This document shows, in pieces, positions 28,250-61,532 of a DNA stretch of 64,000 bases (positions are counted from its first letter, which is position 1; the number at the start of each line of letters is the position of its first letter). The notes under the pieces were generated by a model. That model was not told the DNA's origin. It made no database searches and was given only the letters and a program-made list of their open reading frames with translations. Position numbers and translations under genes: made by a program. The stretch is from a virus. The stretch covers positions 37,072 through 101,071 of IMG/VR virus record IMGVR_UViG_3300035145_004174; one strand, 5' to 3'.

Positions 28250-28278
28250 TTGACATACCTTATTATCTCTGTCATATT
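28250..28278 (+). promoter_or_regulatory. sigma70 promoter, leaderless
   Basis: TTGACA-17-CATATT; ATG at 28285. Confidence 0.7.
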
Positions 28279-28284
28279 TATGGC

Positions 28285-28548
28285 ATGATTGATAACAAAG
28301 TAACATACAACAAAGACGGCACTCCTAGAAAAAAAGGTAGTGGTAGAAAAGCTGGATCGAACTCGTTTGTAAGAGTAACATTTTCAGAATTAAGCGAATA
28401 CATAGGCAAAAATACTCCGATGTTAGTTAGCCGAGTTTGGCTAGAAAACATAGGGATTAGTATTGAGTCTCCTAAAAAGTCAAAAATAAAATTGACAGAC
28501 GAAGGGGAGTCTGATACAGTTTTGTTTAAAGTTAAAAAATTCGATTAA
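28285..28548 (+). CDS. small basic protein with an AT-hook-like segment
   Basis: TPRKKGSGRKAGSNSF. Confidence 0.55.
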   Translation: MIDNKVTYNKDGTPRKKGSGRKAGSNSFVRVTFSELSEYIGKNTPMLVSRVWLENIGISIESPKKSKIKLTDEGESDTVLFKVKKFD

Positions 28549-28561
28549 GAAAGAAATTAAT

Positions 28562-29488
28562 ATGAAAGATATATTCTCACATCTAGTTGGACAAAAAAAT
28601 GTAAAGAAGAAGCTTAGCTTTTACTTGAAAGCTTTCAATAAGACAGGGATCAGTCCTTTTTTGGGCTTCTTTGGGGCTAAAGGTTTAGGTAAAACAGAAT
28701 TCGCTAATGCATATGCTAGGAATTTAGAAAATCAAGATGGTTCAAAAAGACCTTTGCTTGAGCTAAATTGTTCTACTATCAAAAATAATGATAGTTTTTT
28801 CGAACAAATCTTTATACCATTAATTTTAGATAATGAAATAACTGTCTTGTTTGACGAAGCTCACGAGTTACCCAATGACTTAACTATGGCTTTGCTTTCT
28901 ATCCTAGACACTAGAACATCTCATGTTAGAGAGTTTACATGGAAAGAGACTCGCTTCCCTTTTAATTTCAAGAAGCAAACTTTTTTGTTCGCAACAACTG
29001 AAAGCGATAAACTTTTTCCGCCACTTAAAGATAGGTTGACTTCTGTTGACTTCGATCCTTATTCCGAGGAAGAGTTGGGTAGAATTTTGTCTCTAGCTAT
29101 TGAATGCCCTGTTCATAAAAGTGTTCTTGCTCAACTAAGTTCTGTTGTGAGAGGAAATGCTAGAAATGCGATGATGAGATCAAAAGATATTAATCTCTAT
29201 ATAGCATCTGAAGAATTGACTCAATTTTCCTTGAGTGATTATCATAATTTTTGTGATATATTAGGCATTTTACCTTTTGGAATAACTTGCACAGAAAGAC
29301 AAATTCTAGAAGTCTTGCAAGATAAGGGTGCTTGTACCCTTGGCATGTTGGCGGCAAAAACAGGCTTAAGTTCTACTTCGTTAAGAGGTGATCATGAAAA
29401 ATATCTCCTAAAGAAAAATTTAATGGAGATAGATGTTAAGAGAAAAATTACTCCTCTTGGTAGGAAAGTTGTAAAATCTTTAAACTAA
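28562..29488 (+). CDS. ruvB: RuvB-like Holliday junction branch-migration ATPase
   Basis: LVGQ, GAKGLGKT, LFDEAH, ATTE...PLKDR, YSEEEL, RGNAR, C-terminal winged helix (EKYLL...RKITPLG). Confidence 0.8.
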   Translation: MKDIFSHLVGQKNVKKKLSFYLKAFNKTGISPFLGFFGAKGLGKTEFANAYARNLENQDGSKRPLLELNCSTIKNNDSFFEQIFIPLILDNEITVLFDEAHELPNDLTMALLSILDTRTSHVREFTWKETRFPFNFKKQTFLFATTESDKLFPPLKDRLTSVDFDPYSEEELGRILSLAIECPVHKSVLAQLSSVVRGNARNAMMRSKDINLYIASEELTQFSLSDYHNFCDILGILPFGITCTERQILEVLQDKGACTLGMLAAKTGLSSTSLRGDHEKYLLKKNLMEIDVKRKITPLGRKVVKSLN

Positions 29489-29489
29489 T

Positions 29490-29999
29490 ATGTTTGTACA
29501 TAAGTTTGATAAGAGAAACGCGGCATCTATTGGTAATAGAGCTGAAAGAATTTTTGTATCTCTTGCTGGAGCAAGGGGTTATAAAATAAAACCGTCATCT
29601 ACTACAGATAATAAAATTAAAAGAGTCGATTTTTATTTAGAAAAAAATTCCCAAATCAAAGGAGTTGATGTAAAATCAAGGAAGAAAATATGCTATTATG
29701 ATAAAGATTATAATGATGATTGGACTTGGGTCGAATTTAAAAACGGAGATGGCTTTAAAGGATGGCTATATGGAGAAGCAAATTATATAGCATTTGAGAA
29801 AAAAGATTATTTTATCGTAGTAGACAGAATCTCCTTGAAAAACTTAAGTGAATCTCTTATTGATAGAAATAAAGAATTTGTGAAAGATTGTTATAATGCC
29901 AAATATAGAATTTACCAAAGAAGAGATCAAGAAGAAATTTCGTTAATAAAAACTTCAGATATTAAAAAAATTAAAAGAAAAGCAATTTGGAAAAAATGA
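29490..29999 (+). CDS. PD-(D/E)XK endonuclease (possible junction resolvase)
   Basis: GNRAE...VDF...VDVKS...WVEF...GWLYG. Confidence 0.65.
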   Translation: MFVHKFDKRNAASIGNRAERIFVSLAGARGYKIKPSSTTDNKIKRVDFYLEKNSQIKGVDVKSRKKICYYDKDYNDDWTWVEFKNGDGFKGWLYGEANYIAFEKKDYFIVVDRISLKNLSESLIDRNKEFVKDCYNAKYRIYQRRDQEEISLIKTSDIKKIKRKAIWKK

Positions 30000-30214
30000 A
30001 TTTTGACGAACAGACAGATGCCTTTAGATTCGACTTAGATGACCTTTGTGATAGGTATTTAGAAGAGTTTGATATTAATATATTTACTCAAGTAGGAGCT
30101 TTAGAAGAAAAAAAACTTGAACTTTCAAGAATAATTGATACTATAGAAGAAAAAAAGATAGAACTTTTAGGTGAAGATATTGAATTCGAAGTAGACGAAG
30201 ACTTTTTTAATTAA
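29987..30214 (+). CDS. small acidic hypothetical protein
   Basis: Coupled ORF with internal repeat LEEKKLEL/IEEKKIEL. Confidence 0.55.
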   Translation: MEKMNFDEQTDAFRFDLDDLCDRYLEEFDINIFTQVGALEEKKLELSRIIDTIEEKKIELLGEDIEFEVDEDFFN

Positions 30215-30241
30215 TTTTTTTTAGTAACAAACAAACTAATA

Positions 30242-30889
30242 ATGAAAACAAAAACATATATTACGGCACTTTTGTGCCTGATTTCTAACGTCGTCGTTGC
30301 TGGCACAGGCTCAGCAGGACTAGGATATTCTTCTGATTACTTCAGAAGAGGGGCTTTGCTTTCCGAGCAAGCTATTCAGTCCAACATTGGCTATTCTCAG
30401 TCATTGGCAGGTCTAGATTGGTCTGTTGGAGCATCGACAAATCAACCTGTTTCAGTAGGAGAAGACTCTTACATAATTGAAGGGGGAGCTTCTGCTCAAG
30501 TTGGCGAACTTCTGGGTCTTTATGTTGGTCTTCAGCACTTCGAACAGCGCTCTGGCGATGCTACCCTTGAAGTCAATGCGGTAATCTCTTTAGATACACT
30601 ACTTAGTCCTAGTGTTTCGGTCTTTAGAGATACTGACGATGAGCTATATACCTACGAACTAGGTGTGTCTCATTCGATTAATGTCGATTTTGCTGAATTG
30701 GGATTTTCTGCTCTTTACGGAATTACTGATGTAACAGAGAACAATGAAGAAGATTACTATTCTTTAGGAGTTGTTGCGAGCAAATCTCTTTCTGCTAATA
30801 CTGACCTTCAGTTGGGTTATGATTATGTTGATTCCGACTTGATTGATGATGAATCTATCTTGTCTGCATCAATTTCATTCTCCTTCTAA
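30242..30889 (+). CDS. outer-membrane beta-barrel protein (TorF/Gcw_chp-like)
   Basis: Signal peptide, YSSDYFRRG motif, alternating amphipathic strands, C-terminal ISFSF beta-signal. Confidence 0.75.
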   Translation: MKTKTYITALLCLISNVVVAGTGSAGLGYSSDYFRRGALLSEQAIQSNIGYSQSLAGLDWSVGASTNQPVSVGEDSYIIEGGASAQVGELLGLYVGLQHFEQRSGDATLEVNAVISLDTLLSPSVSVFRDTDDELYTYELGVSHSINVDFAELGFSALYGITDVTENNEEDYYSLGVVASKSLSANTDLQLGYDYVDSDLIDDESILSASISFSF

Positions 30890-30917
30890 TTGAAACATTT
30901 CAAACCATAATAAAAAA

Positions 30918-60491: not shown

Positions 60492-60571
60492 TGTCGGGTG
60501 TACTAAATCCCAACACCAATGGGGTGATGTATGCGAGGGGACGTCTTCATGCCCCGAATTGGGTCACGGCA
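60492..60571 (+). ncRNA. candidate structured RNA (three-way junction), strand uncertain
   Basis: GC-rich island: CCCAA/TTGGG enclosing CACC/GGTG and GGGG/CCCC hairpins. Confidence 0.4.
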
Positions 60572-60627
60572 CTTGTCCATTTTGTTTTGATGAAAATTAC
60601 TTAGATTAAATAATTGAAAAAAAAACC

Positions 60628-60713
60628 TTGATTTTTCTAAATAAGAGTCTATAATAAAACAAATAATTGAGAAACTAAACTCAATCAAATCAAATAAGTC
60701 GTTCTTTTACATT
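60628..60713 (+). promoter_or_regulatory. sigma70 promoter + hairpin + boxA-like antitermination leader
   Basis: TTGATT-16-TATAAT; ATTGAG/CTCAAT hairpin at 60666-60685; GTTCTTTTACA at 60701. Confidence 0.55.
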
Positions 60714-60720
60714 TTCATAT

Positions 60721-60823
60721 AGGGGAGTTATGCAGAACCGCCTTTGGTTCTGTGGCAGAAGTAATAGATTTAGGGTTAATCATAATAATGTCTTGCTGAG
60801 GTGAGATGAATCTTCTGCCCCCT
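60721..60823 (+). ncRNA. candidate multi-stem structured RNA
   Basis: AGGGG/CCCCT ends, GCAGAACC/GGTTCTGT hairpin, GGCAGAAG/CTTCTGCC stem enclosing a TCTTGC-TGAG-GTGAGA hairpin. Confidence 0.5.
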
Positions 60824-60852
60824 GCTATTTTGGAAGAGCTAGCTACTCTTCC

Positions 60853-61034
60853 TGTGGGTGACTGAATTAACCTGTCGTGAGCGGGTTAAGGTATGCGATT
60901 CTCTGTGGTGGAGTGCCAATGGACAAATGTCTGAGGTAGGACAAACACCAAGTCTAATCGTAGTTGGAAGTAGGTAATCATTGAACTGCTGTTCACGCCG
61001 AAAACTTGAGGGTATACAGGAATCCCTCCCCACA
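60853..61034 (+). ncRNA. manA-like RNA motif
   Basis: TGTGGG/CCCACA closing stem; GGTGACTGAA, TTAACC/GGTTAAGGT, CGATT/AATCG, GTGGTG...ACCA, GAGGG-TATACAGGAAT-CCCTC. These blocks match my recollection of cyanophage manA RNAs. Confidence 0.6.
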
Positions 61035-61052
61035 CATTTTCCATCCCTACAT

Positions 61053-61097
61053 ACCCTCTCTCTGTTTTTTCCTTTCGGCAGGGAGAGGGTTTTTTTT
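61053..61097 (+). terminator. intrinsic terminator closing the ncRNA operon
   Basis: ACCCTCTCTCTG...CAGGGAGAGGGT followed by a T tract. Confidence 0.85.
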
Positions 61098-61142
61098 GCA
61101 TTTTTATTTGACAGGGGTTCTCTTATATGGAATATTGTTGGT

Positions 61143-61532
61143 ATGAAGACAACAAAAGCTAACGACCCAAGGTACAAAATTAATATAAACAAACCAATTA
61201 AAGTTTATCGTAATCTACATAAACAATGTTGGAGTGTTCAACAGGATGGATTAGTCAAAGCACATACTAATTCAATTAAATTGTTTGATTGCGAATTTAT
61301 CGTAAATCAAGCAGGAAGAGAAAAAGTAATTAAAGAAAGGAGAAAAAATGTTCATGCTTTCATTAAAGGATACATAAGTGAGTTATTTAATACTATATTA
61401 GATGAGCACTTCGGGACAGAAGTTACATACAACCCATATAAAAACGAATTCTTTTACAAAAAGGAGAGCGGGGAGTCTATCCACTCAGCAGATGCAGTCC
61501 TTCTAGATGATAGAAAAGTTTTTTCATTTTAA
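61143..61532 (+). CDS. conserved phage hypothetical protein
   Basis: VYRNLHK..WSV...FIVNQAGREKV..ERRKNVHAF...VTYNPY; start reassigned using TTGACA(61108)-17-AATATT. Confidence 0.7.
   Translation: MKTTKANDPRYKININKPIKVYRNLHKQCWSVQQDGLVKAHTNSIKLFDCEFIVNQAGREKVIKERRKNVHAFIKGYISELFNTILDEHFGTEVTYNPYKNEFFYKKESGESIHSADAVLLDDRKVFSF

Follow-up and report, generated by a model that had tools for sequence, protein, structure and literature searches.

Promoters abutting the start codons of predicted early genes suggest widespread leaderless mRNAs in an uncultured marine phage family

The DNA analyzed here is the last 64 kb (64,000 nucleotides, hereafter the window; record positions 37,072-101,071) of IMGVR_UViG_3300035145_004174, a 101,071-bp IMG/VR record derived from an uncultured marine phage, and the elements in question are promoters that lie directly against the start codons of many small genes whose expression we predict to be early. 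The record has a GC content of 32% and an estimated completeness of 73%, and the size of the whole genome is put at about 140-200 kb. It encodes a ribonucleotide reductase (RNR), a DnaB-like helicase, a DnaE-type polymerase and a UvsX-like recombinase, together with a Clp-type ATPase and glycan genes, as well as a long run of small open reading frames (ORFs) on the plus strand. This run includes an rIIA-like gene, followed by a 394-aa gene for which Pfam returned no match, and whose rIIB label is based on position only. No cultured close relatives were found; a DNA search gave no match, and identity reached about 28% at best for rIIA and about 26% for the terminase. Along the run, a TTGACA-like hexamer, a -10 box and an ATG follow one another at a nearly fixed distance, an arrangement that most probably represents promoters for the host polymerase in which transcription would start on the A of the AUG, giving predicted leaderless mRNAs.

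An earlier note on this DNA had listed 15 pairs in which TTGAC(A/G) precedes an ATG, and all of them are found at the positions it gave, 12 with the ATG 35 nucleotides (nt) after the first T of the hexamer and three with the ATG after 36 nt. The -10 box that was said to lie between the two elements is present with some qualification, in that 11 pairs match TANNNT at positions -12 to -7 or -13 to -8, and the remaining four carry one mismatch (CATATT, TTTAGT, GAAAGT and AATATT). The extended -10 reported before the ATG at 31262 was likewise recovered, immediately downstream of a strong intrinsic terminator. The 16 sites predicted to be leaderless, and two in which the ATG lies slightly farther from the -10, are listed below as hexamer, spacer length, -10 box and number of nt to the ATG; where the layout replaces a start in the program-made ORF list, the replaced start is given.

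28250-28287, plus strand: predicted leaderless promoter TTGACA-17-CATATT-6-ATG; gene 28285-28548 (87 aa)
31202-31264, plus strand: terminator 31202-31221 with T-run, extended -10 TGT-TATAAT at 31247-31255, CTTATT, then ATG 31262; gene of 163 aa; replaces the TTG start at 31244
36941-36979, plus strand: predicted leaderless promoter TTGACA-17-TATAGT-7-ATG; UvdE-like endonuclease 36977-37984; replaces the start at 36845
39196-39234, plus strand: predicted leaderless promoter TTGACA-16-TATAGT-8-ATG; gene 39232-39513; promoter within the 3' end of the upstream ORF
39603-39640, plus strand: predicted leaderless promoter TTGACA-17-TATATT-6-ATG; gene 39638-39916
43069-43106, plus strand: predicted leaderless promoter TTGACA-17-TAACTT-6-ATG; gene 43104-43322
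45764-45802, plus strand: predicted leaderless promoter TTGACA-17-TAAAGT-7-ATG; gene 45800-46357 (185 aa)
48336-48373, plus strand: predicted leaderless promoter TTGACA-17-TTTAGT-6-ATG; gene 48371-48535 (54 aa); replaces the TTG start at 48353
50045-50082, plus strand: predicted leaderless promoter TTGACA-17-TATCTT-6-ATG; SprT-like protein (metalloprotease) 50080-50586
50583-50620, plus strand: predicted leaderless promoter TTGACA-17-TATTGT-6-ATG; gene 50618-50809
54807-54844, plus strand: predicted leaderless promoter TTGACA-17-TAAAGT-6-ATG; gene 54842-55147
55585-55622, plus strand: predicted leaderless promoter TTGACA-17-GAAAGT-6-ATG; gene 55620-55853
55994-56031, plus strand: predicted leaderless promoter TTGACG-17-TACTTT-6-ATG; 43-aa gene from 56029; replaces the start at 55933
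57686-57723, plus strand: predicted leaderless promoter TTGACG-17-TAATTT-6-ATG; gene 57721-57951; promoter wholly within the upstream ORF 57379-57711
60273-60310, plus strand: predicted leaderless promoter TTGACA-17-TATTGT-6-ATG; gene 60308-60469 (53 aa)
61108-61145, plus strand: predicted leaderless promoter TTGACA-17-AATATT-6-ATG; L5 gp82-like protein 61143-61532; replaces the TTG start at 60981; follows the terminator 61070-61089
16946-16986, plus strand: near-leaderless TTGACA-17-TATTAT, 9 nt, ATG 16984; predicted leader of 2 nt
40779-40818, plus strand: near-leaderless TTGACA-17-(TGG)AAGAAT, 8 nt, ATG 40816; FkbM-type methyltransferase

The hexamer TTGAC[AG] occurs 66 times on the plus strand of the window, with an ATG 35 nt downstream in 16 cases and 36 nt downstream in five, against an average of 1.6 ATG at the other offsets on this strand; on the minus strand the 35-nt offset is empty and a single ATG falls at 36 nt, which equals the background. 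In Markov sequences simulated with the same dinucleotide content as the window, 1.26 +/- 1.04 pairs were obtained (maximum 5, 200 runs) versus the 21 observed (Poisson P about 5e-11), and the excess expected by the earlier note is hence borne out. The six plus-strand pairs that are additional to the 15 (at 3603, 6216, 28851, 30003, 42796 and 46702) are intragenic or open only tiny frames. At one of these (42796-42833), TTGACA-17-TACATT-6-ATG lies in frame inside ORF 42495-43055, and could either allow a 74-aa N-terminally shortened form of the protein to be made or be due to chance, position -1 being an A and not a pyrimidine.

The same arrangement was sought in 23 related marine viral contigs, found with the rIIA-like protein (43-90% identity) and including several complete genomes of 194-214 kb; pooled counts refer to these relatives plus the window's own contig, and for the site counts that follow directly each sequence was taken once. 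Among 754 unique TTGAC[AG] sites so pooled, an ATG follows at 35 nt in 176 and at 36 nt in 64, and at 34 nt in none, with the opposite strand remaining flat. When grouped at 80% identity over the stretch between the -35 and the ATG, these 240 sites form 176 clusters, and are therefore not copies of one cassette. The layout is also kept at orthologous genes, namely in 12 of 12 orthologues of the SprT-like gene at 50080, whose spacers have diverged, in 15 of 19 for the gene at 55620, in all three for the UvdE gene at 36977 and in both for the gene at 56029. The sites concentrate in the small-ORF region that holds rIIA and the presumed rIIB, and in a complete relative of 205,857 bp, 17 of 19 sites are confined to a single 44-kb stretch of small ORFs, where they lie on the coding strand. 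It could still be argued that the pattern arose by chance, as a compositional artefact, or through the spread of one mobile cassette of the promoter-early stem-loop (PeSL) type. In an AT-rich genome such as this one, -10-like strings are in fact common, and a generic promoter scan of this DNA showed no excess over shuffled sequence, and was uninformative. The probability computed for the window, however, argues against such an explanation, as do the diversity of the sites, which are not near-identical repeats, the strand specificity of the pattern and its retention at orthologues; PeSL cassettes, moreover, have a stem-loop and a Shine-Dalgarno (SD) sequence (PMC2839356). We consider the chance of this explanation being correct to be close to negligible.

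When the pooled sites are aligned on the ATG, they display an A/T-only tract at -45 to -39, a C at -36 (51%) followed by TTGACA, a T at -17 in 70% and TAnnnT at -12 to -7, with base frequencies of 0.74 for T at -12, 0.84 for A at -11 and 0.91 for T at -7. The base at -1 is C or T at 95% of the sites, and position -2 is not conserved; at operon-internal starts, a pyrimidine is found at -1 in 46% and an A in 47%. The -35 box is no artefact of site selection, because a search anchored on TANNNT-N5-Y-ATG alone gives 174 sites, of which 140 have TTG at -35 and 111 (64%) an exact TTGACA, with 0 of 18 on the reverse strand. All the elements expected of promoters for a group 1 sigma70 are thus found, namely TTGACA, a spacer of 17 +/- 1 bp, TAnnnT, a pyrimidine at -1 with a purine at +1, and the A/T tract at about -45 to -39, which in its sequence resembles an UP element. 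The canonical sigma70-type character attributed to these promoters by the earlier note, with a predicted +1 that coincides with the A of a genuine start codon, is upheld and extends across the phage family. A sigma70 polymerase starts about 7 nt past the -10, choosing a purine that has a pyrimidine before it. In promoters of the same class that are followed by a leader, a pyrimidine (79%) and then an A (70%) occupy positions 6 and 7 after the -10, and the A of the ATG therefore corresponds to the class's own conserved, predicted +1. A TANNNT located about 12 nt before the start codon has been described as a computational mark of bacterial leaderless genes (PMC3160421), and in the leaderless sites studied here the -10 (TANNNT) ends 6-7 nt before the ATG.

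Two other promoter types were considered and set aside. A Bacteroidota-type promoter (TTTG at -33 and TAnnTTTG at -7; PMC6847099) was ruled out by the low share of T at -8 (29%) and of G at -5 (12%), by the frequent exact TTGACA where that type has a weak -33, and by the SD cores of leadered genes where that type goes with general avoidance of SD. A search for a second promoter class abutting start codons returned only a small extra TANNNT peak at offset 12 and five extended -10 cases, so that such a class was rejected. In the 35-nt sites the -10 begins in the reading frame of the ATG, and its first triplet is TAA or TAG in roughly two thirds of cases, a stop that lies four codons before the start; counting all sites, an in-frame stop lies within four codons in 47%. 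Alternatively, transcription might begin 1-3 nt away from the A, giving very short leaders, or a factor supplied by the phage might act instead of the host sigma70. Sigma70 starts can indeed shift between 6 and 9 nt past the -10, and at 16946 and 40779 the ATG follows the -10 after 8-9 nt. A pyrimidine at -1 with an A at +1 is, however, the preferred start dinucleotide, with -2 left free to vary, and TTGACA-17-TAnnnT with its upstream A/T tract is the group-1 sigma consensus rather than a motif of the extracytoplasmic function (ECF) type; furthermore, studies of transcription start sites count leaders of 5 nt or less as leaderless. We therefore regard either departure from a host-driven start on the A as very unlikely.

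That the ATGs so placed are real starts is suggested by several features of the genes. ORFs of at least 40 codons are opened by 238 of 266 pooled sites (89%), in DNA with frequent stop codons, and the codon found at 35 nt is ATG in 195 cases, GTG in one and TTG in one. An in-frame stop occurs no more than 12 codons upstream in 74% of sites, and an upstream in-frame ATG in only 14%. Promoter and ATG are kept together in orthologues, whose alignments begin at residue 1, and when the UvdE-like protein is read from 36977, Pfam matches it from residue 4 onward; the gene starts that the earlier note had proposed to move hold at 31262, 36977, 48371, 56029 and 61143. The first 40 nt of the predicted leaderless mRNAs are also slightly less structured than internal coding starts (-1.16 vs -2.00 kcal/mol, P = 4e-5), and low 5' structure is reported to favor leaderless translation (PMC8459731). 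On the strength of the sequence, we infer that protein is made from the 5'-terminal AUG.

Promoters of this class do not always abut a start codon. The distance from the -10 to the first ATG of a long ORF is bimodal, being 6-7 nt in 161 of 326 promoters and mostly 31-45 nt in the others, with few values between; mapped leaders of Lactococcus cremoris are bimodal likewise, and the gap between the two modes is empty (PMC10986495). Among the approximately 27 promoters of the window, 16 are leaderless, two nearly so and nine leadered, including those of rIIA and of the presumed rIIB. In the class as a whole, the leadered promoters have leaders of 25-40 nt, many with an AAGGAG-type SD. Five of the leadered promoters of the window are as follows.

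50834-50912, plus strand: leadered promoter of rIIA, of the same class; ATG 50910, leader of about 40 nt; AAGGA is found here in relatives
53254-53319, plus strand: leadered promoter TTGACT-17-TATACT, 34 nt from the -10 to ATG 53317; 394-aa presumed rIIB
57302-57381, plus strand: leadered promoter TTGACA-18-TATATT with SD AAGGAG; ATG 57379
48060-48127, plus strand: leadered promoter TTGACA-17-TAAGTT, 36 nt from the -10 to ATG 48125
58420-58491, plus strand: leadered promoter TTGACA-17-TAGAGT, 40 nt from the -10 to ATG 58489

The early programme is hence a mixed one, in which leaderless and leadered promoters stand together, and the description of the layout as systematic is too strong: it is family-wide and conserved, but only about 50-65% of the promoters are leaderless (49% in the pooled set and 16-18 of about 27 in the window). 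SD cores, of the AAGGAG type and most frequent 10-15 nt before the ATG, accompany 54% of leadered genes but only 1% of leaderless ones, with 6% at random positions. The lack of SD that had been claimed is therefore true of the leaderless genes, and represents a contrast of two gene classes under the same promoter class, not a genome-wide trait of the family. At operon-internal starts, SD cores amount to 4% in this contig, which is the random rate, and to 21% in the pooled family, with a clear positional peak; SD use differs between close relatives. Because the leadered genes are rich in SD, the host ribosome evidently uses it, which argues against a Bacteroidota host. At 44034-44105, TTGACA-18-TATACT is followed after 8 nt by ATG GAT AGA TAA, a three-codon mini-ORF very near the predicted 5' end; the gene itself starts 19 nt farther downstream, at 44103.

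In the mechanism that we favor, the primary (sigma70-type) RNA polymerase holoenzyme of the host would read these strong early promoters and, across a discriminator of 6-7 nt ending in a pyrimidine, would start on the A of the ATG, yielding a 5'-pppAUG mRNA that has neither a leader nor an SD sequence. The ribosome, together with initiator tRNA, would then decode the 5' AUG directly by the leaderless route, and translation could begin once the 5' end emerges. Precedents for this route are lambda cI and genes of Thermus and actinobacteria, and the 70S initiation route invoked in the earlier note is textbook knowledge from E. coli. The likeliest reason for such a design would be compaction, with one promoter per small early gene and stop, promoter and start packed into a linker of about 38 bp. 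The idea that it would allow the phage to escape a shut-off of canonical translation, put forward in the earlier note, is weakened, as the same promoters drive SD-led early genes.

Some considerations weigh against leaderless translation as the main route. Leaderless mRNAs are usually poorly translated in SD-using Gram-negative bacteria; 45% of the promoters overlap the upstream ORF, and there is no terminator before many of them; and the same ATGs may be readable as internal cistrons on read-through transcripts. It can be proposed, in fact, that the promoters are real, that their tight spacing is a mere by-product of compaction, and that most protein comes from read-through polycistronic transcripts as SD-less internal cistrons. 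The position of the -35 boxes inside the upstream ORF in the same 45%, the median gap of 38 nt between upstream stop and ATG, the small number of terminators between units, and the fact that the operon-internal genes of this contig are likewise without SD would all fit such a proposal. Compaction alone, however, leaves unexplained the near-exclusive use of ATG, the pyrimidine at -1 and the less structured 5' ends, and with a pile-up at exactly +1, the transcript issuing from that promoter would be leaderless regardless. On balance, we consider it unlikely that read-through accounts for most of the protein. We also regard as rather improbable that the split between leaderless and SD-led genes serves as a translational timing switch, set by an infection-induced change in IF2/IF3, in S1 or in the 16S 3' end, or by a phage factor; if this were true, one transcription programme would be turned into two translation programmes, in a host not using the leaderless route.

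Phage-encoded translation functions were looked for as well. Ribosomal protein S21 was not found in the contig or in four complete relatives, and there were no translation-related Pfam matches among 20 early-region proteins. A tRNA(CAT) at 59954-60028 was rejected as a phage initiator tRNA on account of its paired G1-C72 and its lack of the three G-C anticodon-stem pairs, and is an elongator tRNA-Met or a tRNA-Ile2 read after lysidine modification. A tRNA-Arg(TCT) lies at window positions 35994-36070.

With regard to the host, the best bacterial matches to a predicted nucleotide-sugar enzyme (read as gmd) were on short contigs in Flavobacteriaceae bins and on a 210-kb contig in a Cellvibrionales bin. 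The latter, JAYQMT010000004.1 (210,818 bp, from a Cellvibrionales metagenome-assembled genome, MAG), has the leaderless promoter pattern six times, along with an rIIA homologue at 43-65% identity; in a Flavobacteriaceae MAG, one short contig encodes an rIIA homologue (38%) and further short contigs of this MAG show the promoter pattern. Such contigs look like DNA of phages of the same family, mis-binned into species-representative genomes, and because their rIIA homologues mark them as phage DNA, they say little about the host. We also screened 80 further genomes (40 per bin group) from the groups whose bins hold these phage contigs, which may not be those of the host, and the layout stayed at control level there, the exact and reversed patterns occurring 5 vs 7 and 14 vs 8 times; the phage contig has seven matches in 101 kb to the motif taken without the -1 pyrimidine, four of them with that pyrimidine in place. 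In comparison with these 80 sampled genomes, the layout is a phage trait. A Bacteroidota host, guessed at from the SD-poor contig, was dropped, given that the promoters are not of the TAnnTTTG type and that leadered genes of the family have an SD, and a cyanobacterial host is without support, psbA being absent from the five genomes examined. In three salt-marsh metatranscriptome runs, 5-12% of the words sampled from 48300-58200 were present, which is no evidence of expression.

Other features of the region deserve mention. A manA RNA (Rfam RF01745, 80 bits) lies at 60832-61038, with a promoter-like site at 60628 before it and the terminator 61070-61089 with its T-run after it, and the L5 gp82-like gene could be reached both by read-through past this RNA and from its own promoter (61108/61143). 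The early region further encodes a macro-domain protein (38739-39239), and the protein encoded at 30242-30889 has a weak, sub-threshold match to Gram-negative porins.

The layout rule could serve as a simple, conserved finder of early promoters and true starts in a large family of uncultured marine phages, and it corrects at least five gene starts in the window. The coexistence of leaderless and SD-led genes under one promoter class would offer a natural comparison of the two initiation routes. If our prediction is correct, phages that rely heavily on leaderless mRNAs are not limited to those of hosts rich in leaderless genes, such as Thermus, actinobacteria and archaea.

Among known systems, the Thermus phage phiYS40 is similar in being a large phage that makes many of its mRNAs leaderless, as predicted for the phage studied here. 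Its middle and late transcripts are mostly leaderless, and infection is reported to raise IF2 and lower IF3, favoring leaderless translation (summarized in PMC3594737). In phiYS40, however, the leaderless genes are middle and late ones, whereas here they would be early genes with full -35/-10 promoters of the host type, standing beside SD-led genes; the Deinococcus-Thermus host has itself 36-46% leaderless genes (PMC3160421), whereas the 80 genomes sampled here are without the layout; and phiYS40 was mapped experimentally, whereas the starts given here are predicted. The lambda PRM-cI unit likewise has a sigma70 promoter that starts transcription on the A of the AUG, and its mRNA is translated by the leaderless route in an SD-using Gram-negative host (PMC9031893), but it serves one regulatory gene, compared to 16-18 in 36 kb here and about 240 across the family. 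Actinobacteria and Deinococcus-Thermus share the TANNNT geometry at about 12 nt (PMC3160421), and L. cremoris the two-mode leader distribution with its empty gap (PMC10986495); in all three this belongs to the host genome and usually comes with a weak -35, in contrast to the phage trait, near-perfect TTGACA and UP-like A/T tract described here. The PeSL elements of RB49 and phi1 resemble our sites in being dense, strong, sigma70-like early promoters with AT-rich upstream sequence, located among small ORFan genes in a plastic region (PMC2839356). They are, however, conserved recombining repeats of about 100 bp with a stem-loop and an SD before the ATG (PMC2839356), whereas the promoters analyzed here are diverse in sequence, as their clustering indicates, mostly without stem-loops and without SD, abut the ATG, and in few cases follow a terminator (31202 and 61070). 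Phage phiKZ is without leaderless transcripts (PMC8244752). Leaderless mRNAs were thus already known, as were the -10 signature that marks them and a phage that is mostly leaderless, and what is new is the bimodal distance between -10 and start codon and the SD contrast that accompanies it.

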